A stretch of DNA of 64,000 nucleotides from Candidatus Fraserbacteria bacterium (GTDB lineage Bacteria > Bipolaricaulota > Bipolaricaulia > RBG-16-55-9 > JANLFV01), in contig JBBIJD010000001.1 of NCBI GenBank assembly GCA_037446135.1, positions 27,156 through 91,155 of the forward strand. Direction: 5' to 3'. The translations under genes and the position numbers were made by a program. Positions 2,262-57,620 of the stretch are shown piece after piece. Position 1 is the first letter of the stretch. Each line of letters begins with the position of its first letter. Below the pieces are notes generated by a model. It had not been told where the DNA came from. It saw only the letters and a list, made by a program, of their open reading frames with translations, and made no database searches.

Positions 2262-3188
2262 TTGATGAGATCTCTTCTCTTATACCTCTCGCGGAACGAG
2301 CGCTTAGAGGGGTTCGTCCTCCGCTCCAAGTTGGCCCGCCGGGCGGCCCGGCGATTCATCGCTGGGGAGACGATGGACGAGGCCTTGAAGGTCGTCCAGG
2401 GGCTGAATGAGCGGGGCTTGCTCGCCACGATCGACCACCTTGGAGAGAATGTCACGAGGGCGGAGGAGGCCCGCGCCGCCGCCGCTGAGTATCTAGAGCT
2501 CCTCCCGAAGATCGCCGCGCTCGGCCTCCAGTCCCACGCCTCTCTCAAGCTGACTCAGATGGGGCTGGATCTCGGGCTGGAGTTCTGTCAGGGGAACCTC
2601 GAGCAGATCGTGGCCCGGGCCAAGGAGTTGGGCAACTTCGTCCGGATCGATATGGAAGGCTCGGCCTATACTGATCGGACCCTCGCCCTCTTCTCCAGGT
2701 TGAGGGAGAAGTATGATAATTTGGGGATCGTCCTCCAGGCCAACCTCCGCCGGACGGAACGGGACCTCGCGAGGCTGATCGAGCTGGGAGCGAATGTCCG
2801 CCTCTGCAAGGGGGCCTATAAGGAGCCGGCGAAGATCGCGTTCCCCAAGAAGCGCGAAGTTGACGCCAACTATATCAAGCTGATGGAGATGCTCCTGAGC
2901 CGGGAGGCTCGGGCCAAGGGGGCCTACGCCGCGATCGCGACCCATGACGAGCGGATGATCGCCAAGGCCAAGGAGTTGGCGGCCCGGGAGGGCTTGGGCC
3001 GGGAGGAGTTCGAGTTCCAGATGCTCCTCGGGATCAGAAGGCGGCTGGCGGAGGAGTTGGCCGATGAAGGCTACCGCGTCCGGATCTATGTCTCCTACGG
3101 GACAGCCTGGTATCCCTTCTACATGCGGCGGCTCGCCGAGCGGCCGGCCAATCTCTTGTTCCTCTTGAGGAATGTCTTCAGGCGCTAA
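2262..3188 (+). CDS. Proline dehydrogenase (monofunctional ProDH)
   Basis: 308 aa. TIM-barrel ProDH family pattern (LATIDHLGENV, RIDMEGSAYTDRTL, YVSYGTAWYPFYMRRLAERPANLLF). Confidence 0.85.
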   Translation: MMRSLLLYLSRNERLEGFVLRSKLARRAARRFIAGETMDEALKVVQGLNERGLLATIDHLGENVTRAEEARAAAAEYLELLPKIAALGLQSHASLKLTQMGLDLGLEFCQGNLEQIVARAKELGNFVRIDMEGSAYTDRTLALFSRLREKYDNLGIVLQANLRRTERDLARLIELGANVRLCKGAYKEPAKIAFPKKREVDANYIKLMEMLLSREARAKGAYAAIATHDERMIAKAKELAAREGLGREEFEFQMLLGIRRRLAEELADEGYRVRIYVSYGTAWYPFYMRRLAERPANLLFLLRNVFRR

Positions 3189-4044
3189 CGCTAATATCTT
3201 CCGGCGCGGGGCGGCCCTCCCCAGGCCGATCCTGAACATCGCCCATCGCGGGGCCGCCTCCCTTGCCCCGGAGAATACCCTCGCCGCGGCCCGAAAGGCC
3301 CATGAACTGGGAGCCGACCTCTGGGAATGCGATGTCCGGTTCACTAAAGATGGGCTCCCGATCCTGATGCACGACGCTACCCTCCGGCGGACGACCGATG
3401 TTTATAGAAGATTCCCGACCCGCGGGCCCTGGTGGGTCCACCTCTTCACGCTCGAGGAGATCGACCGGCTCGATGCCAGCTCCTGGTTCAACGAGGTCGA
3501 CCCCTTCGGGCAGATCCGAGCCGGGGCGGTCTCACCCGAGGAGCGGGAGGGCTATCGCGGCGAGCCGGTCCCGACCCTCAAAGAGGCCCTCCGCTTCACT
3601 AAAGAGCGCGGCTGGCGGGTCAACCTCGAGCTGAAGGCCGCGGTCCACTTGGCTCCCCGAGTGGTTGCACAAAGGGTCCTCGAAATCGTTCAGGAGATGG
3701 GAATGGCAGAGAGAGTGCTCATCTCCTCCTATAATGAGCGGGTCTTGAGGGAGGTCAAGCGGTTGGACCGCGAGATCGCCATCGCCCCCTTGGTCGCTCT
3801 CCGTCCTCAAGATCCCGTCGGGTATCTCGAGCGGCTCGAAGCCGAGGCCTATCATCCCAGCCTCTGGGCCTTCAACGCCGAGGACGCGCGCGAGCTGCGC
3901 CGGTTGGGGTTCGGCGTGAACCTCTGGACCTGCGACGCTCTGGATCGCTTGCGCGAGCTCGCCGCTGGAGGCCTAGTGAGCGGGATCTTCACCAACTTCC
4001 CCCAACGGCTCGGGCCGATCCTGGAGGAGTTCTTTAGGCCCTAG
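3172..4044 (+). CDS. Glycerophosphodiester phosphodiesterase (GDPD family)
   Basis: 290 aa. N-terminal IAHRGAASLAPENTLAAARKAHELGADLWECDVRFTKDGLPILMHD is the canonical GDPD catalytic region. Confidence 0.85.
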   Translation: MSSGANANIFRRGAALPRPILNIAHRGAASLAPENTLAAARKAHELGADLWECDVRFTKDGLPILMHDATLRRTTDVYRRFPTRGPWWVHLFTLEEIDRLDASSWFNEVDPFGQIRAGAVSPEEREGYRGEPVPTLKEALRFTKERGWRVNLELKAAVHLAPRVVAQRVLEIVQEMGMAERVLISSYNERVLREVKRLDREIAIAPLVALRPQDPVGYLERLEAEAYHPSLWAFNAEDARELRRLGFGVNLWTCDALDRLRELAAGGLVSGIFTNFPQRLGPILEEFFRP

Positions 4045-6044
4045 TGAGCGGGCTCGCGGAACTCAAGGAGCCCCATCTTCTCCAGGAGCTCGAAGTGCCG
4101 GACCAGCCACTTCCCTGCACGCTCGCCGGCCTCGAGCTCCACCAGATCGATGATCTCGGCCAGGGTCCGCCTCCCATCGGCCCAGTAGAGCGCGAGTGTC
4201 GGGAGGATCGCGGGCTTCTCCTTGAAGTCCTTGCGGAGGCGATGCCAAGCCTCCCGGTCTTCCCAAGTGAGCCTCCTCAGATAGGGCTGGAGCTGAGCGA
4301 TCGGGCCGCGATAGCGCCTTACGGGGATGAGCTCCTCCGCTCGCTCTGCCCAAGGTTCGGACTCGCGCTTTAGCTCTTCGGGGAGCTTGACCTTGGTCTG
4401 ACGGGCGATCAACTCCCTGGCCCGGGCCAGCTCATGGCCGGAGAATTCCAGGATTTCCCGCCGCTCATCGGAGAGATCGAACTCCGACTTACGCGGGACG
4501 AGCTTCAGGATCGAGTCCAAGGCCTTCGCCCCCCGGTCGGCCAGGTAGTCCCCCTCCCGAGCCAGCCTCGCGGCAAGCCGCCGGACTTCTTCGGCCTTTC
4601 CCGCCGCCAGGGCCTCCGGCAGTCTCTCCTGAATCAGCTTGAGCAGCTCGGCCTTGGCCTGGGCCACCACCTCCGCAGCCAGCCAGCGAGCCTCTCCCTC
4701 CCCAGCATTGGCGACAAGGTAAGCGGAGGAGGCGGCCAAGCTCCCCACAAGATGGAGCATCTTCGGGCTCACCTTGTCCGGGGTGTCTAGGCTGGTATGG
4801 TAGAACCGGTCAGGCCACTGGATGAGCATCACCGTCGGGACACCGACCGTGGGATCGGAGAGGACATAGTGGTCGCTCCCGCCGGAGAAGGGGACATCGG
4901 CGTAGCGGAAGGGGGCATAGCCACCGCGGCTGCTGAAGCCCTTCAGCTCGTGGGTGAACTCCTCCCTTACCCTCCGGACCAAAGGCTCGATGAACCCCGG
5001 AGAGGCCCCGGGGAGCCGGTCGATCAAGAGGCTGCTCCCACATCGATCTTGGTCCTCTCCGACCATGTCCAGGTTGAGCCCCGCGATCATCCTGGGGATG
5101 GCCTCCTCATGGGAGGCGAGGTAGGCGATCGTCCCGGTCATCTCCGGGACGAGGAGGAAGCGGATCCCTCGCTTAGGCTTGCCCAATTTGCCTTGTGTGA
5201 TCAGCGCTTGCAATGCCCGGGCGGCCTCGAGCAGCGCCGCCGCGCCGGAGGCATTATCGTTCGCGCTCGGCTTGGGATGACAGAGGTGGGCTAAGATCAA
5301 AACCTCCTCCGGACCTTCACCAGGGATGAGGGCAGAGACGACCTCCAGTTTCCCGTCCCAGGAGCGGCTCTCGACTTGTGCCCTTATCTTGAGCCGCTTC
5401 CCCTCCTTGAAGAGCCGGCGGAGCCTCTCCCCCTCCCGCGGGGTGAGGACGAACCCGAAGCACTTCCGTTCGTCACCGCTCCACCAGAAGGAGGCATACT
5501 GCCTAGCATCGGGGAGGTCCAGCCTCTGCCGGATGGGGAGCTCGCGCAGCCCATCGAAGGCGATCCCCACGGCCCCGCCCCGTTCGACCGCCAGGTCGTA
5601 GACCCTCTGGAGGTCCCCCTTAGTGAGGATGGCCTTCCCTTGAAGGTCGAGGCCCTCGTATTCTTCTGCTTCCTCGCCGTCCTCGAGGAGGACTAGCTCG
5701 GCCTCTAAGTCCGCCGGTCCGCTCCGCTGGATTAGCGCGAGCGGACATTCCTGGAAGTCCGCCAGCTTCCGCTCCTCCGGCTCGATCAAGAAGAGCCTCG
5801 CCCCTTCGGCCTCCCATTCCTGGAACATCGGCAGCGCCCAGTATCTCTCCCTCGGGTCTGCAGGGAAGGCGAGGAGCTGGACCCCCAGGCCCGCCTCTTC
5901 CAACTCTGCGGCCGCGAGCTCCGCCGCGGCGCGGAAGCCCGGGCTCGCCTGGATCCGGTGGTATCTTGTGATCGTAGCTACCAAGTCCAGGGCCCGCTCG
6001 CCCGAGAGCTCGTCACGGATCGGCTCGATGATCGACTTGAGCAT
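4041..6044 (-). CDS. M28-like peptidase-domain protein (DUF4910/aminopeptidase-like family) with C-terminal helical/winged-helix-like region
   Basis: 667 aa. HLCHPKPSANDNASGAAALLEAARAL and later GGSDHYVLSD resemble the M28 zinc-peptidase fold. Long C-terminal extension. Confidence 0.6.
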   Translation of the reverse strand: MLKSIIEPIRDELSGERALDLVATITRYHRIQASPGFRAAAELAAAELEEAGLGVQLLAFPADPRERYWALPMFQEWEAEGARLFLIEPEERKLADFQECPLALIQRSGPADLEAELVLLEDGEEAEEYEGLDLQGKAILTKGDLQRVYDLAVERGGAVGIAFDGLRELPIRQRLDLPDARQYASFWWSGDERKCFGFVLTPREGERLRRLFKEGKRLKIRAQVESRSWDGKLEVVSALIPGEGPEEVLILAHLCHPKPSANDNASGAAALLEAARALQALITQGKLGKPKRGIRFLLVPEMTGTIAYLASHEEAIPRMIAGLNLDMVGEDQDRCGSSLLIDRLPGASPGFIEPLVRRVREEFTHELKGFSSRGGYAPFRYADVPFSGGSDHYVLSDPTVGVPTVMLIQWPDRFYHTSLDTPDKVSPKMLHLVGSLAASSAYLVANAGEGEARWLAAEVVAQAKAELLKLIQERLPEALAAGKAEEVRRLAARLAREGDYLADRGAKALDSILKLVPRKSEFDLSDERREILEFSGHELARARELIARQTKVKLPEELKRESEPWAERAEELIPVRRYRGPIAQLQPYLRRLTWEDREAWHRLRKDFKEKPAILPTLALYWADGRRTLAEIIDLVELEAGERAGKWLVRHFELLEKMGLLEFREPAH

Positions 6045-29783: not shown

Positions 29784-29972
29784 TTAAGGACCACGCTCCT
29801 TGCTTGGCTTGCCCGGCCTGGCTCGGGCTTGGCTAGCGCCCGAGATGATAGGGGAAGCACAAAGGCCGGTCAAGCCGAGCTGAGCTAAGCTAAGCGAGCC
29901 AGGCAGTCGGTCCGTCCGACCCTTGTGAGGCCCACTGTGGGCCTATATACTTAGGGAGAGCGAGGTGGAGGA

Positions 29973-50725: not shown

Positions 50726-52189
50726 TCAGTCGGTGAGCTGCTCGGCCAGCTCGCCCTCCTGGGGGATTGGGGCCTTCTCCTCGATGACCTTCCTCTTCCA
50801 GATCCCAGTGGAGAGCAGCGCGACCGCGAGGAGGGCCGAAGCGAAGTTGCTGATCGCCATCCCGATCCAGACCCCGGTCGAGCCCAGCCCCAAGGGGAAG
50901 GCGAAGATGTAGCTCAAGGGGAGGCGGAGGGCCCAGAGCCGGACGAGCTCCATGATCATCGTCGGGACATTGTGGCCCGAGCCGCGGAAGATGGCGTTCA
51001 CCGCGGCGAAGAGCCCGAAGAAGGGCATCCCCGGGGCGAAGAGGGCGAGGAATCTCTCCCCCTCAGCGATGATGTCCTCTCTTCCGGGGATGAAGAAGGC
51101 GATCAACGGCCTTCGAGCTAACCAGATGACCACCGCCTCCGCCACGAGCAGGAGGAACATCACGGTCGTCCCCTTCTTGGCCGCCTCGCCGGCCCGTTTG
51201 GGAAGGTCCGCCCCCAGGCTCTGGCCGAGGATCGTCGTCAGGCCCACGCCGAGCCCGTCGAGGGCGATGAAGAGCAGCCCGAGGATCCGGTCCCCGATCC
51301 CGTAGGCGGCGAGGGCCACGGTGGGATTCGGAACCCGCCCGATGACCGCCATGAGGAAGACGAACCCCAGGGCCGTCCCCGACTGGCCCACCGCGGCGGG
51401 GACCCCGATCCGGAGGATCTTCCCCACCCAGGTCCACCTCGGCCGGAGCTCAGGAAGACTAAGCTTCAGCCCCCTCCGCCCGCGAAAGAGGATCGTTAGG
51501 GCCAGGATCGAGACGAGCCCCTCGGCGATCACCGTCGCCAGGGCCGCCCCGAAGATCCCCAGCTTCGGGAATGGCCCCAGGCCGAAGATCAACAGGGGAT
51601 CGAGCCCGATGTTGAGGAGGACACCTGCGCCGTTCACGAGCATCGGTGTGACGGTATCCCCGTAAGCCGCCAAGGAGAAGTAAAAGAGGAACGGGGCGAA
51701 CATGAAGGGGAGCCCGAGGAAGATCACACGGATGTAGAGCGTCGCGACATCGGAGACCTCGCCCGCCCCGACCAGGAGCGGGAGGATATGAGGCGAGAAG
51801 AAGAAGCCCGCGACCCCGACAGCGATCCCGGAGATGAAGGAGAGGGCGAAGATCTGGCTGCAGGCCAGATTGGCCTCCGCTGGGCGCTTTGCCCCGGTGT
51901 ATTGGGAGATGAGCGCGCTCCCCGCCGCCCCGCCGAACCCCCCGATGAAGGAGATCAAGAGCCAGACGACCGGCCAGGAGATCTGGATCCCCGCGACCGC
52001 TGGACCAGATTCAGCAGGGGGGAGGTGGCCGATCCAGAAGGCGTCCGCCAGGTTGTAGAGCGTCTGGAGGACCCCGGTGACCATCCCGGGCCAGCCTAAG
52101 CGGACCATCGTCCAGATGATCGGCCCATTGAGGATCTCCTCCCGCGAGAGTCTGGCCATAATGCTTGAGCCTCCTTCCAACCAAAGCAA
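50726..52189 (-). CDS. MATE-family efflux transporter
   Basis: 487 aa in the track. The internal Met of MARLSREEIL is the probable start. Twelve TM segments with a MatE duplication. Confidence 0.85.
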   Translation of the reverse strand: MLWLEGGSSIMARLSREEILNGPIIWTMVRLGWPGMVTGVLQTLYNLADAFWIGHLPPAESGPAVAGIQISWPVVWLLISFIGGFGGAAGSALISQYTGAKRPAEANLACSQIFALSFISGIAVGVAGFFFSPHILPLLVGAGEVSDVATLYIRVIFLGLPFMFAPFLFYFSLAAYGDTVTPMLVNGAGVLLNIGLDPLLIFGLGPFPKLGIFGAALATVIAEGLVSILALTILFRGRRGLKLSLPELRPRWTWVGKILRIGVPAAVGQSGTALGFVFLMAVIGRVPNPTVALAAYGIGDRILGLLFIALDGLGVGLTTILGQSLGADLPKRAGEAAKKGTTVMFLLLVAEAVVIWLARRPLIAFFIPGREDIIAEGERFLALFAPGMPFFGLFAAVNAIFRGSGHNVPTMIMELVRLWALRLPLSYIFAFPLGLGSTGVWIGMAISNFASALLAVALLSTGIWKRKVIEEKAPIPQEGELAEQLTD

Positions 52190-52963: not shown

Positions 52964-54138
52964 ATGGCTCTTACGGCCATTGAGGCAGCCGTCCCACCGC
53001 CCATGCAGATCGTGGTCAGGCCGTGCTCGAGCCCCCGCCGGCGGAGCTCATAGATCAAAGTTGTTAAAATCCTTGTCCCCGATGAGCCGATCGCATGGCC
53101 TAGCGCGAGCGCCCCGCCATTGACATTGACCCGCTCCCAATCCCAGCCCAGCTCCTTCCCATCGGCCAGGGTCTGGGCGGCGAAGGCCTCATTGACCTCG
53201 ATGAGGTCGAAGAAGTCGAGCTTGACCCCTAACTTCTTCAACAACATCCTCGTGGCGAAGACCGGGCCATAGAAGAGCTCGATGGGCTCCACCCCGGCCA
53301 CGGCGTAGCCGATGATCTCCGCCAGCGGCCGCAAGCCCCGTCGCTTGGCCTCGTCTTTCGACATCACCAGGACCGCTGAGGCCCCGTCGCAGAGCCCGGG
53401 CGAGTTCCCCGCCGTGACCGTCCCGCCCTCCTGGAAGACCGGCTTGAGCTTGGCCAGCTTCTCTAGAGCCGTATCGGGCCGGATCGTCTCGTCCCGCTCA
53501 AGGAGGCCGTCCTTGAAGGGGATCGGGATGATCTCCTCCTTGAACTTCCCTTCCTCGGTGGCCCGCGCGGCCTTCATGTGCGATTCGTAGGCGAACCGGT
53601 CCTGCTCCTCCCGAGTGATCCCCGACTTCTTGGCGGTATATTCCGCCGCTACGCCCATGTGCTTGTCCTCGAAGTTGCACCACAGGCCGTCATAGACCAG
53701 CAAATCCTTCACCTGCTGGTCCCAGAGGCGGTAGCCGGCTCGCGCGCCGGGGAGGGCGTAAGGGGCGTTGGTCATCGACTCCATCCCGCCGGCGATGATC
53801 GCCTTCGCATCCCCGGCCTTGATCGCCTGGGTCGCGAGGATCACGGCCTTGGTGGCCGAGCCGCAGACCTTATTGACCGTGAAGGCCGGGACCTCCGGTG
53901 AGAGCCCCCCGCGAATTGAAGCCTGTCTGGCCGGGGCCTGGCCTGCACCGGCCTGGACCACCTGGCCGAGGATCACCTCATCCACGCCCTTGGGGTCTAG
54001 CCCATTCCGCTCGCGCAGTGCCGCGATCACCTTCGCGCCCAAATCGGTGGCCTTATACTGAGCCAGTGAGCCCTGGAATCGCCCCGTCGGGGTCCGCACC
54101 GCATCGACGATCACTACCTCAGTCATGGGGCAACTCAT
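52960..54138 (-). CDS. Acetyl-CoA C-acetyltransferase (thiolase II)
   Basis: 392 aa. Active-site Cys (VNKVCGSATKAV), NVNGGALALGHAIGSSG and GCMGGG thiolase signatures. Confidence 0.95.
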   Translation of the reverse strand: MSCPMTEVVIVDAVRTPTGRFQGSLAQYKATDLGAKVIAALRERNGLDPKGVDEVILGQVVQAGAGQAPARQASIRGGLSPEVPAFTVNKVCGSATKAVILATQAIKAGDAKAIIAGGMESMTNAPYALPGARAGYRLWDQQVKDLLVYDGLWCNFEDKHMGVAAEYTAKKSGITREEQDRFAYESHMKAARATEEGKFKEEIIPIPFKDGLLERDETIRPDTALEKLAKLKPVFQEGGTVTAGNSPGLCDGASAVLVMSKDEAKRRGLRPLAEIIGYAVAGVEPIELFYGPVFATRMLLKKLGVKLDFFDLIEVNEAFAAQTLADGKELGWDWERVNVNGGALALGHAIGSSGTRILTTLIYELRRRGLEHGLTTICMGGGTAASMAVRAI

Positions 54139-54399
54139 CCTCCCTCTCTGTTAGCTTTCCACTAGCAATAGCCTCAAAACCGCGTCAGCCAAGAAGATCG
54201 GCCCGCTCAACTGTCGCTCTGATAGCCGGCTCTCGACTACCCTAAGCGGCGCGGGCTTGCCATGGCGAGATGATAGCATAGCAGTAGCTAAAAAGGCAAG
54301 AGCTGGACTCATGGCTCTCTCGGGCTCTCGTGGCAGTTAATCTGGGCCATCGGGAACTGCCGACCAATGAGCGTGGACGATTCTAAGCATCACACAAGT

Positions 54400-54960
54400 T
54401 TCCGGCTTCTTGGGGCTTTTCCACCGCCGCCACCACAGCTTCCTCAGGTGGGACCATCCGGGTTATCTCGCCTGTGAAGCTTATTAGTCTGGGGTAACCG
54501 TCCTATCTAATGGCTTGCACATAGCCACACGCGGAGCAAGCGAAGCCGCTGAAGGCTGGCTAGAGCCACAAGACCTCTCTTCTCCTTGACCTCGTCCGCT
54601 ACGGTTGCAAACGGCAAGGCCGTTACATATTCCGGCTGCATAATCATCGCCGTCCACTTCCATAGTCCCTTGTTGTTCATACTGAACTGCCGCGGATCAT
54701 CTGTCCACCACAGCCCTTCCACCAAAGGCATTACCGCGTAATCTACGCCAACGATCTTCTTGACCCTGAATTTGAGGGCGTAGGACAGGGGAAAGAGCGC
54801 TTCCATTGCCTGTTGATACTCCAGAGAAACATTTGGGTCGAAGGTGCCATCAACCATCAGAAAGTTCATCGGTGGAACATCTACCACGGAGACTCCCCTG
54901 GCCGATGGATTGTAGAGATGCTTGAGATCAACTCTGGCCGTTTATGCTCCTCCTTAGCGA
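54400..54960 (-). pseudogene. GyrI-like small-molecule-binding domain gene, degraded: no start codon and an in-frame TAG within the conserved GLCxxxxHIGPY region
   Basis: Track ORF 54507..54887 (VDVPPMNFLMVDGTFDPNVSLEYQQAMEALFPLSYALKF...EGLWWTDD...WKWTAMIMQPEYVT) matches only the middle of ~205-aa GyrI-like proteins. The upstream in-frame sequence (...TARVDLKHLYNPSARGVS) continues the homology but hits a TAA with no start. Downstream, ...RVWLCASH*IGRLPQ shows a nonsense codon. The segment is lower in GC than its surroundings. Confidence 0.55.
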
Positions 54961-55023
54961 GTTTTGCCGCCCAACGGCTGTCAGCTCCAGCCGCAGGTTG
55001 GGCGGCCCAACGGAATGACACCT

Positions 55024-55704
55024 CTACTCACCTAATCTTCTCTGCACCGCCTCGCTCTTAAGCTCCTTTATCACATCTGCGGCTATCCAGCGGGCTGCCT
55101 TCGAATCCATTCGCCCGATCTCCTCCGCCACCGCGAGCACCGCTCTGTTCAGATCACTGCCCCTTTTCCCAATGTTCCGCAACGCCCAACTCACCGCTTT
55201 CTTCACATAGTTCCGCTCGTCTGTTGCCCCTCGCTTTATCACCGGGAATAGCCTAATGAACTCCGCGTCCGCCGCGCCTTTGTCGTGCCATGCCAGACAG
55301 GCAATCAGCGCATACGCCGCCCGCCTCACGAACTCCTCCTCCCGTTCAGACCAGTCAACAACCTTTTTCCACGCCAACGGGCTCTTCTTGAACAGGTTCA
55401 TACACACCTGGTCACAGACATCCCATGAGTTTATCCCTGCAACCCACTCCTCCATTTGCTCCTCGGTCAATTCCTCTGGCCGATCCACCATTGCGGCCAC
55501 GATCCTCGCCTCGGGTATCCCCGTTGCCCATAACCCCAGTGCAAGTTTGTGGTCTTTCCCCGCTTCTCTTGCTATCTTCCGCATATCCGGCACAGATACT
55601 CCCAACCGCTGCTCGGCTGTCATCCCATACCTGGCCATGCCTTCCACATGATCGGGTCTGGCTTTGGCCTTTAGCTTCTTGATGACTTCCTCCACAGATG
55701 CCAT
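55024..55704 (-). CDS. DNA alkylation repair protein (AlkD-like HEAT-repeat DNA glycosylase family)
   Basis: 226 aa with the PF08713-type pattern (WDVCDQVCMNLFKKSPLAWKKVVDWSEREEEFVRRAAYALIA). Third-position A/T-rich codon usage unlike the flanking genes. Confidence 0.8.
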   Translation of the reverse strand: MASVEEVIKKLKAKARPDHVEGMARYGMTAEQRLGVSVPDMRKIAREAGKDHKLALGLWATGIPEARIVAAMVDRPEELTEEQMEEWVAGINSWDVCDQVCMNLFKKSPLAWKKVVDWSEREEEFVRRAAYALIACLAWHDKGAADAEFIRLFPVIKRGATDERNYVKKAVSWALRNIGKRGSDLNRAVLAVAEEIGRMDSKAARWIAADVIKELKSEAVQRRLGE

Positions 55705-56321
55705 GTCTCGCCTCCAAGCACTCTATAGGCCGCCCAACAGTGGTTATATCGATCCGCGTAACACACTAGACATAACTTCGATTACCGTATAAGACTCCTG
55801 CGAGTGAAGCATCGCTTTGGGCCTAGCCGGCCGGTGAGCGATCAGGCGGTTGCGTCGAGGCACTGTCCTTCTCACAACGCCTTAGCAGGGCCGGTCCTAG
55901 TGCTCCACCCCCTTGCGGGGTCCACCTCTACGGATCGGCATAACACCCCTCATGACCGCCTCCGAGCGCATCGACGGGGCTTACGAACCCCCGGCCGGGC
56001 CACAGTCAAGGGCACTAAGTGAAAACCATGGTGCTCTTCACATCCTTGATGGCCATACTGAGAACTGAGAATAGCATGCCCCCCTCATGGAGGTCAAGGT
56101 GGATCGCTCAAGACCAGAAACGAAGGCCACTGGTGCTCTGTCAGCCATGCCTTGATAGGGAGCTTCCTCCCCCTGGAGGGAGGCGGGCCTATGAGGAGGT
56201 GAGAGGGATTAGAATCATCAGCACCCCCATCCCAACTTTCTCACCCCAAGAGGAACGGCCGGCCAATCTATCAAAGAAACTGTGATAGAGCACTAGTGAA
56301 GGAACTGTAATTGCGGGGAGC

Positions 56322-57620
56322 CTAAGGGGTGAGCCGGTAGAGCATCCTGGGGAAGGGGATGGCCTCACGGATGTGCTTCAGCCCACAGATCCAGGAGACG
56401 GCCCGCTCGATCCCGAGCCCGAAGCCGGAGTGGGGGACCGATCCATATCTTCGGAGGTCGAGATACCACTCATAGGGTTCGCGCGGGAGGCCGAACTTCT
56501 TCAACCGCCTCTCCAAGAGCTTCAGATCGGCGATCCGCTGGCTCCCGCCGATCAGCTCCCCATAGCCCTCGGGGACGATCAAGTCCGCGGCCAGGACAAG
56601 CTCAGGGTTCTCGGGCATCGGCTCCATGTAGAAGGCCTTCATCTCCGCCGGGAGGGCCTCGACGAAGACCGGCTTACCAAAATGCCTGCCCAGGGCCTCC
56701 TCTTCCGGGGCCCCGAAGTCCTTCCCCCAGGGGAGTTCTAACCCCTCGCTCTTCAGGATCTCCAGGGACTCGGCATAGGTGATCCGGGCGAACGGCCCCT
56801 CGACCTCAGACCGGAGGAGCTCGCGATCCCTTCCGAGCTGCTCCAGCTCCTTCCGCCGGCGGTCGAGCGCCCTCAGGACGATGTAGCGGACCAGCTCCTC
56901 CTGGAGCCACAGGTTATCGTTGTGGTCGAAGTAGGCCATCTCGGCCTCGGCCATCCAGAACTCAGTCAGGTGTTTTCTGGTCTTAGACCGCTCAGCCCGG
57001 AAGGTCGGCCCGATCCAGTAGACCCTTCCCAAGGCCATCGCTGTCGCCTCCAGATAGAGCTGGCCGCTCTGGGTGAGATAGGCCTTATCGTCGAAGTAGT
57101 TGACCTCGAAGAGGGTGGTCGTCCCCTCGACGGCCGCAGGGGTGAGGATCGGGGCCTCAGTGGCGATGAACCCGTGCTCATTGAAGAAGTCCCGAATCGC
57201 CTGGAGGACCTCGTGTCGGACGCGGAGGATCGGGACTTGAAGGGCCGAGCGGAGCCAGAGGTGGCGATGGTCCATTAAGAAGCCTACCCCATGCTCCTTC
57301 TTCCCGATGGGGTATTCTTCGGCCAGATGGACCAGCTCCAGCCCGGTGAGGGCCAGCTCATAGCCTCCGGGGGCTCGGGGCTCGGCGCGGACCACGCCGC
57401 GGACCTTGAGTGAGGACTCCTGGGTCAATCGCTCCGCGAGCTCGAAGGCCGCGTCGGGGACCTCGCCCTTGACCAGGACGCACTGGATGATCCCTGTCCC
57501 GTCCCGGACGAGGAGGAACTGGATCTTCCCGCTCGAGCGGCGATTATAGAGCCAGCCGCAGATCAGGACCTCCTGGCCGACCTTATCGGCGATCTCTTCA
57601 ATGTAAGTCTGGCCTTCCAT
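56322..57620 (-). CDS. asnS: Asparagine--tRNA ligase (short archaeal/Thermus-type AsnRS)
   Basis: 432 aa. Class II motifs: [24 protein letters not shown] (motif 2) and [27 protein letters not shown] (motif 3). N-terminal OB fold. Confidence 0.85.

Follow-up and report, generated by a model that had tools for sequence, protein, structure and literature searches.

A probable decayed chromosomal integron between asnS and a thiolase gene, with AlkD-like and CCH cassettes

What occupies the 2.2 kb between asnS and the thiolase gene in this genome? We analyzed positions 54139-56321 of the window (the whole stretch of DNA under study, 64 kb), which a sequence-only reading had described as an old horizontally acquired insert in decay, holding a GyrI-like pseudogene, an AlkD-like repair gene and about 570 nt of structured non-coding DNA. 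Our analysis indicates that the segment is very probably a sedentary chromosomal integron in decay, with the inverted-integrase layout, located between asnS and the thiolase gene and carrying two cassettes. The earlier description thus stands as far as acquisition and decay are concerned, because the segment is missing from one related genome, is replaced by other genes in a second, deviates in composition and bears deletion scars, but it missed the integron nature. The element is of a known kind with an ordinary mechanism, and the result is an annotation correction plus a pointer to a cassette pair consisting of an AlkD-like gene and a gene for a GyrI-like cyclopropanoid cyclopropyl hydrolase (CCH). 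The features of the segment described below lie on the minus strand.

Composition and relatives of the segment

The GC content of 54139-56321 was 0.560, compared with 0.642 elsewhere in the window, and no other stretch of 2183 nt in the 64 kb had less (minimum 0.561 at 54101). In sliding windows, GC fell from 0.62-0.69 in the flanks to 0.53-0.59 over ~54000-56400. The GC drop noticed earlier is therefore real, and the segment has the most deviant composition in the window. GC at third codon positions (GC3) was 0.674 in the AlkD-like gene (z -2.3) and 0.620 in that part of the GyrI-like gene which is covered by homology (z -3.1), relative to the 53 other long open reading frames (ORFs) of the window (mean 0.818, sd 0.063), a reference set whose mean is lowered by a few likely wrong-frame ORFs (GC1 ~0.8, GC3 ~0.6). 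Both values are well below the mean, but the term "A/T-rich" used for these third positions was too strong, because G+C still makes up more than 60% of them. Positions 54462-56597 recurred at 100% identity in an independent Logan assembly, L081 (SRR11582153), so that the junctions are unlikely to be assembly artefacts. ORF and tRNA/tmRNA scans found no credible ORF or tRNA in 55705-56321, in agreement with the earlier description of this part as non-coding, and the tRNA/tmRNA scan found no target tRNA near the segment.

The asnS product was 93% identical to those of two Candidatus Acetothermia metagenome-assembled genomes (MAGs), L001 and L002 (the latter JANLFV010000004.1, MAG A05DMB20), and its more distant matches were from Bipolaricaulota. 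Only these two genomes in the genome collection had the asnS-thiolase synteny. A metagenome scan with asnS for closer relatives gave a best match of 71% identity and no syntenic locus. On the asnS side, the window DNA was 82.8% identical to L001 and 76.8% identical to L002. The asnS stop and the thiolase start are separated by 53 bp in L001, relative to which ~2.2 kb of the window is an insert, and the same slot in L002 holds a different insert of 2.8 kb. The segment is thus not conserved among the syntenic genomes.

The L002 insert is, judging from its sequence, an integron of the inverted-integrase layout (PMC4889954). Its first ORF matched positions 1-67 of the integron integrase profile TIGR02249 (E 6.5e-23) and then jumped from position 67 to the C-terminal tail GGKGVRSPVDAL, which points to an internal deletion in the L002 intI gene; the truncated gene is still an open frame of 136 codons. 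It is followed by GTTAT/ATAAC boxes, by ATATAAT-CAATA-GTTAGCC and then by three co-oriented ORFs encoding GNAT, SDR and GNAT proteins. The first two of these ORFs are each followed by an attC-type palindrome (GGCTAAC...GTTAGCC and GGCCAAC...GTTAGCA). The two sites scored 84 and 68 bits with R1, our covariance model of attC, and both belong to its training set; a third attC, degraded by eye, was undetected by R1. Cassette content at this fixed site therefore varies, with an AlkD-like and a GyrI-like gene in the window, GNAT/SDR/GNAT in L002 and none in L001, and the window and L002 have no cassette in common.

Integrase, attI and cassette remnants in the window

The supposed non-coding stretch appears to be integrase and attI debris with no RNA gene. 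Its asnS-proximal part includes a block shared with L002 (56065-56128; local alignment to L002 11319-11381), the L002 counterpart of which lies directly upstream of the truncated intI. The block holds a predicted sigma-70-like promoter with a -35 element TTGACC at 56097-56092 and a TG-extended -10 element TATTCT at 56073-56068. This consensus-level arrangement, TTGACC-18-TATTCT, is the only promoter-like site predicted in the non-coding stretch and is conserved with L002.

Two intI remnants follow. Remnant A (55964-56056) begins with ATG and reads KDVKSTMVFT*CP*LWPGRGFVSPVDAL, a tail motif of 27 residues with two stops (56047-55964) that resembles the integron-integrase C-terminal tail KDVKTTMIYTHVLNRGGxGVRSPVDAL. 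It was detected by tblastn with IntI proteins, for example P0003 at E 7.6e-4, and was the single match below E 0.1 (E 0.0014) when a hidden Markov model built from 24 IntI tails was searched against 4266 six-frame 60-aa chunks of the whole window. NCBIfam gave no match to the 43-aa IntI-tail translation. The DNA of remnant A is collinear with the L002 tail and a direct-repeat box GGGGTGTTAT, with a score that was reached by 9 of 500 shuffled sequences. Beside it, the box GGGGTGTTATGCC (copy A, 55937-55949) matches the L002 box GGGGTGTTATACGG located 3' of the intI tail. This box is a candidate integrase-binding direct repeat of attI, judging from its presumed resemblance to the direct repeats of attI1.

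Remnant B (55804-55881) is an N-terminal-domain fragment, ..ALxE-DSASTQ, which runs into a deletion junction between N-terminus and tail as in L002. Its core of ~11 residues (55881-55851) is a 31-nt match to L002 11638-11670, encoding ALKERVSASTQ, at a score reached by 3 of 200 shuffles. The larger interval 55895-55725 is collinear with L002 11625-11897 through the deletion junction and the TTATACGG box, and its alignment score of 25.5 was not reached in 300 shuffles (mean 13.2, sd 2.8, maximum 25.3). Integrase fragments are thus present where none had been visible before, and the degraded gene that had been suggested as one content of the stretch is intI.

The attI-like region (55732-55795) comprises the box GTCTTATACGG (55795-55785), TGTTACGCGG (55763-55754) and, at 55749-55732, the simple site ATATAAC-CACT-G|TTGGGC, in which crossover would fall after G55738. 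Positions 55763-55727 align with L002 11856-11893, the pre-cassette site TGTTATGTGG..ATATAAT..GTTAGCC, at a score reached by none of 500 shuffles. The boundary between the attI-like region and the first cassette is identical to the cassette start in three other loci, L172-174.

Cassette 1 (54975-55737, 763 nt) consists of TTGGGCGGCC, a 5' untranslated region, the AlkD-like ORF (55704-55024) and an attC. Over its first 10-11 nt it is perfectly complementary to the R'' flank of its own attC (GGCCGCCCAAC / GGCCGCCCAA(C)), as is expected of a circularizing unit. The 64 kb contain exactly three copies of the 10-mer GTTGGGCGGC, each at an ORF boundary within the segment. The attC (54967-55005) is a palindrome located 3' of the cassette ORF, with an R'' box GCCCAAC of the form RYYYAAC, the outer L'' arm GGCTGGAGCTGACAG and an R' box GTTGGGC of the form GTTRRRY. 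No R1 match in the window was better than this one, which reached 26.7 bits (E 1.8e-4 when searched over 189 kb and 2.2e-6 locally). The site lacks ~47 model positions from its center and is therefore probably not recombinogenic; a full-length attC, in L172, reads CCGCCCAACCTGCGGCTCAAGCCGACAG...CCGTTGGGCGG. R1 also recovered attC sites on which it had not been trained, after cassette ORFs in several other loci.

The AlkD-like ORF, 55024-55704(-), is intact, as had been thought: its product, which at 226 aa has the length of most close homologs, matched PF08713 at E 1.3e-33 (positions 2-196 of the 213 in the profile). A profile alignment to 3JXZ places the catalytic residues of B. cereus AlkD, Trp109, Asp113 and Trp187 (PMC8626424), opposite W94, D98 and W173, none of which varies among 28 homologs. 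We infer from the sequence that the cassette 1 gene encodes a putative AlkD-type HEAT-repeat DNA glycosylase.

Cassette 2 (54511-54974) is truncated; it retains a GyrI-like/CCH pseudogene (54941-54548), which is followed by what resembles an attC 3' half (54547-54505). The gene is 81% identical to P0123 over residues 7-134, after which homology is lost abruptly at ~54548. Likewise, a profile of 109 full-length homologs matched only its positions ~7-133 (window 54935-54549), and family-profile homology was absent from the 3' third in any frame. Judged against homolog DNA, the start has changed from ATG to ACG at 54941-54939, and the other lesions are a 4-codon deletion, a 1-codon insertion and the loss of the last ~70 codons. 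The pseudogene status and the lost start noted earlier were thus correct. The in-frame TAG said to interrupt a conserved block (54509-54507) lies outside the gene homology, in the attC R'-like remnant ATTAGAT, and the reading of "H*IG" as a MHIGPY block is excluded by the lack of profile homology in the 3' third. The GyrI-like gene is pseudogenized by 3' truncation, with no internal TAG involved. Pfam and NCBIfam gave no match to the 126-aa GyrI ORF, the identity of which comes from homologs and our own profiles.

The full-length homolog P0123 aligned over its whole length with Lin2189 (PDB 3B49/5X5M; E 9e-45) and keeps E157, E185, Y187 and the Trp pair. Lin2189 is a proven yatakemycin (YTM)/CC-1065 hydrolase with catalytic residues E157 and E185, and the Lin2189/YtkR7 CCH subfamily has an aromatic cage of W85, W99, F154 and Y187 (PMC5684135). 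The window copy ends at about residue 134, without F154, E157, E185 and Y187; since the catalytic C-terminal third is missing, the window CCH is dead.

The remainder of the segment is less informative. The 172 nt that separate the attC half-site from the L002-shared flank (54339-54510) gave no profile or ORF signal and may be what is left of a further cassette. The thiolase-proximal flank (54139-54338) is common to L002 and absent from L001: in blastn alignments L002 reaches 54338, whereas L001 stops at 54127. A promoter-like site predicted for the thiolase gene has its -35 element TTGCCT at 54299-54294 and its -10 element TATCAT at 54275-54270. On the other side, an orphan spacer of 212 nt (56110-56321) runs from the asnS stop to the integron promoter, and L002 has only ~20 nt at this position. 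Sensitive blastn against all fetched loci gave no significant match to the orphan pieces 54339-54548, 55705-55890, 55882-56066 and 56110-56321. Within the spacer, a 171-nt unit, 56128-56298(-), has 31-nt imperfect terminal inverted repeats (CACTAGTGCTCTATCACAG.. / ..CTGACAGAGCACCAGTG) and resembles a miniature inverted-repeat transposable element, without a clean target duplication and with only ~8 nt in its place in L002; no second copy was found in the window or in 175 loci.

Elsewhere in the window, R1 gave a weak match (19.5 bits, E 0.019) at 29855-29930(-), where a divergent intergenic region of 190 nt holds a hairpin of ~75 nt. This hairpin has a GCTCGCTTAGCTTAGCTCAGCTCGGC center and lacks AAC/GTT core boxes; either the match is spurious or the site is very degenerate, in all probability. 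ARAGORN reported a "tRNA-???" with the 4-base anticodon cgtc at 51313-51398(-), inside a 487-aa MATE-like ORF (50726-52189), which is almost certainly a false positive.

AlkD-like and CCH genes in other arrays

The two window genes recur together in unrelated metagenome contigs. In L172-175, AlkD-like homologs of 80% identity are preceded by a full-length attC with R' G|TTGGGCGGCC and then by the same ..GCTTGGAGGCAAGACATG leader. The GyrI-like gene comes after the AlkD-like gene and is followed by another full-length attC. The pair is thus bounded by sites of 83-95 bits, the neighbors on either side differ between contigs, and the 52-nt spacer between the two genes holds no attC. In L166-168, which carry the closest AlkD-like homolog (93% identity), an attC lies between the AlkD-like gene and CCH as in the window, and further cassettes carry DUF1801, heliorhodopsin and ANT(2'')-like genes. 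The ORFs upstream in L166-168 were checked as possible IntI genes and are not IntI. The AlkD-like and CCH genes were adjacent and in the same order in all 10 of the 10 loci reached via three AlkD homologs.

The CCH gene is also damaged in L166 (1400-2009), L167 (1296-1905) and L168 (1346-1955), where a frameshift at about codon 90 leaves ORFs of 91 and 100 aa. Together with its truncation in the window, this means that the hydrolase has decayed independently at least twice, with the glycosylase intact.

These arrays held further features. In L166, an attC match at 3487-3563 (48 bits, E 1.5e-10) follows the heliorhodopsin gene (PF18761), which thus looks like an integron cassette. The same co-oriented array includes an aminoglycoside-2''-adenylyltransferase-like gene (PF10706, E 2e-32); the two entries span 2673-3563 and 3594-4073. 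In L172 (543-1589) and L175 (196-1242), the attC preceding the AlkD-like and CCH genes has a DDE_3/HTH transposase gene immediately upstream, which indicates an insertion sequence (IS) in or beside that cassette array. L083 and L084 have identical CCH and downstream genes and differ upstream (~5100-6000), with a 152-aa protein of unknown family in one and a 4Fe-4S protein in the other. They share a ~230-nt block with long GC-rich inverted repeats before CCH, another variable junction.

In the yatakemycin cluster, the YtkR2 glycosylase and the YtkR7 CCH form two layers of self-resistance against yatakemycin/CC-1065 (PMC5684135, PMC8626424). The pairing seen here mirrors these two proteins and suggests a mobile anti-genotoxin module, that is, a putative two-layer protection against yatakemycin/CC-1065-type alkylators. 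Destroying the toxin would be the task of the hydrolase and removing the adducts that of the glycosylase, in which case only the glycosylase half is left in the window. More broadly, we tentatively suggest that AlkD-like and Lin2189-type CCH genes might travel together as fused or adjacent cassettes over many uncultivated lineages and confer resistance to duocarmycin, CC-1065 and yatakemycin, with CCH decaying repeatedly and the glycosylase being kept; we regard this as possible rather than likely.

Several points weigh against this functional assignment. A profile of the 28 homologs matched AlkF (3ZBO) at E 6e-12 and AlkD at E 2e-6, so that the closest solved structure is AlkF, not AlkD. To our knowledge, AlkF is without glycosylase activity. 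Some AlkD-like homologs occur alone or elsewhere, without an adjacent CCH or attC, and the evidence for a genotoxin-resistance role is homology.

Alternatives, history and known systems

The integron reading also has evidence against it. No intact integrase gene is present: the catalytic domain is missing, and the IntI fragments are short, with only moderate significance (E 0.0014; 9/500, 3/200 and 0/300 shuffles). Remnant A, from the tail, lies upstream of remnant B, from the N-terminus, an order that is not collinear with a single gene. The identity of the attI-like region is suggested by homology with L002 and by the presumed resemblance to attI1, and we know of no experimentally defined attI in this lineage or integrase clade. 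R1 was built from only 7 sites of the fetched loci that we chose ourselves. A single attC passed the threshold, and at ~39 nt it is far shorter than the sites of 66-133 nt in other loci, so that the segment does not have the two or more attC within 4 kb of a CALIN, an attC cluster without an integron integrase. The half-attC of cassette 2, 54503-54576(-), scored 8.3 bits (E 0.38) for a 3' half only, matched to the 3' half of the L172 attC by eye, and the array ends in AAC|TGCC, unlike a clean G|TT junction. Finally, only two relatives have the locus.

Could the two genes instead be an ordinary AlkD-GyrI operon, moved by homologous recombination or an unrecognized transposon, with the palindromes as terminators or repetitive extragenic palindromic (REP)-like elements and the integrase likeness due to chance? 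The constant order in 10/10 loci, the 52-nt spacer without attC in L172-175, the homologs in ordinary chromosomal contexts without attC and the modest statistics of the IntI fragments are in its favor. However, the pair in L172-175 is bounded by canonical attC sites of 83-95 bits with differing neighbors, and the attC between the genes in L166-168 and in the window indicates that they can be separate cassettes. At the same chromosomal position, L002 carries an attC array together with an intI fragment that is unambiguous. A terminator scan found no terminators and no terminator-like T-runs, and no transposase or IS ends were seen in the segment. We therefore consider such an operon improbable.

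The possibility of an RNA, raised by the sequence-only reading, fared worse. On this explanation, the segment would be an old generic islet of unknown route, and its 570-nt part would be a structured small RNA (sRNA) or a riboswitch-like leader of the AlkD-like gene. A 617-nt spacer does lie upstream of the intact gene and downstream of the promoter-like site, and it contains local hairpins, for example CCCC-GCAA-GGGG at ~55905, and a 14-bp stem (55743-55756 / 55931-55944). This stem, however, is composed of two GTTAT/ATAAC att-type boxes, and RNA folding was no better than that of shuffled sequence: z was -1.35 for 56110-56321 (22 of 200 shuffles folded at least as well) and -0.92 for 55705-56066 (19 of 100), within 1.4 sd of the shuffles in both cases. 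A scan of 53900-56700 on both strands against Rfam 15 by E-value gave nothing usable, with no family at E<=1 except SNORD75 at 21.3 bits (gathering score 50), a spurious match inside the GyrI coding remnant. The repeated CAUGAGGGG/CCCCUCAUG elements amount to two copies in the same orientation, where 1.7 are expected per window and 49 of 100 shuffles held at least two, which puts the CCCCTCATG repeat at chance level. The stretch is absent in L001, and its conservation with L002 is limited to the promoter, the intI fragments and attI. The Rfam result and the ordinary folding energies are consistent with intI and attI debris, and we consider an RNA leader or sRNA very improbable.

Hardly credible is a still-functional minimal system in which leftover intI ORFs (an N-terminal SAM-like domain plus tail, as in L002) encode a DNA-binding regulator or protector of att sites. 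In its favor, a search with the L002 fragment gave, among its 120 top proteins, 24 with the tail motif at only 76-234 aa, ~20 of which by inspection fuse the N-terminal domain to the tail at differing junctions, and L002 has an open 136-codon frame behind the conserved promoter. Against it, stops or frameshifts interrupt both window fragments, these lack the catalytic domain, and the enrichment of short forms is biased by a like-built query and by fragmentary contigs.

The short database entries are an observation in their own right. Many "integrases" of 76-234 aa are internally deleted IntI (P0003, P0013, P0019, P0020, P0025, P0033, P0043, P0048, P0081 and others), in which the N-terminal SAM-like domain, often up to ..VSASTQNQ, is in frame with the tail ..GVRSPVDAL at differing junctions. 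In this sample, which is biased by the L002-fragment query, they could reflect repeated decay, gene calls made on fragmentary sequence or a genuine family of mini-proteins.

With the decayed integron as the favored explanation, the following history can be proposed. At the active stage, the IntI tyrosine recombinase would have joined the folded attC of a circular cassette to attI at G|TT, each new cassette landing directly downstream of the promoter. An ancestor of these lineages would have had such an integron between asnS and the thiolase gene. As the window and L002 seem to share the deletion junction, intI was probably deleted internally in their common ancestor, before the two split. The arrays may later have changed via differential loss or an integrase acting in trans. 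In the window lineage, deletions would have taken the center of the attC, the 3' end of CCH and half of the CCH attC, leaving the AlkD-like gene fixed behind the old promoter on a platform that would no longer recombine. Its transcription might start at the former intI promoter or come from asnS read-through. Because the platform is common to the window and L002, L001 most likely lost the whole element secondarily.

A complete integron is defined by intI and at least one attC, and CALIN by at least two attC without an integrase; intI pseudogenes were found near only 15 of 279 CALIN (Cury et al., 2016, PMC4889954). With one internally deleted attC, the window segment is strictly neither. It is like sedentary chromosomal integrons of the inverted integron-integrase group (e.g. 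Treponema), and like CALIN or cassette clusters beside intI pseudogenes, in that intI, attI and cassettes are co-oriented, the cassettes start with G|TTRRRY and end in an attC with RYYYAAC...GTTRRRY, the content differs at a fixed site and the integrase is pseudogenized. It is unlike them in its host, Acetothermia/Bipolaricaulota, and in an intI reduced to two non-collinear fragments of ~30 and ~25 codons. The literature searched yielded no integron report in Acetothermia, the sole co-mention for Bipolaricaulota being an unrelated sediment-diversity preprint, and no relevant report of GyrI-like or alkylation-repair genes as cassettes. The L002 integron shares the position, the promoter block, the apparent intI deletion junction, the attI-like site and the thiolase-proximal flank; unlike the window, it retains an open frame covering 67 N-terminal positions of the IntI profile, and two full-length attC. 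The analysis turns a low-GC patch with a "mystery RNA" into an annotated element and takes away a false non-coding RNA lead. An integron in Acetothermia/Bipolaricaulota can be followed through stages of decay over three related genomes, as a concrete case of the CALIN proposal of Cury et al., in which a captured cassette gene becomes fixed as the recombination machinery erodes.

As for the cassette genes, the arrangement is like that of YtkR2/AlkD and YtkR7/Lin2189, the same two families side by side (PMC5684135, PMC8626424). It differs from the Ytk system in that the pair occurs as integron cassettes in non-producers, outside a biosynthetic gene cluster, and in that the CCH half is dead in the window and the AlkD-like protein is distant from AlkD and closer to AlkF. 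The recurrence of AlkD-like and CCH cassettes suggests that resistance against genotoxins of the duocarmycin family may circulate on the integrons of environmental bacteria.

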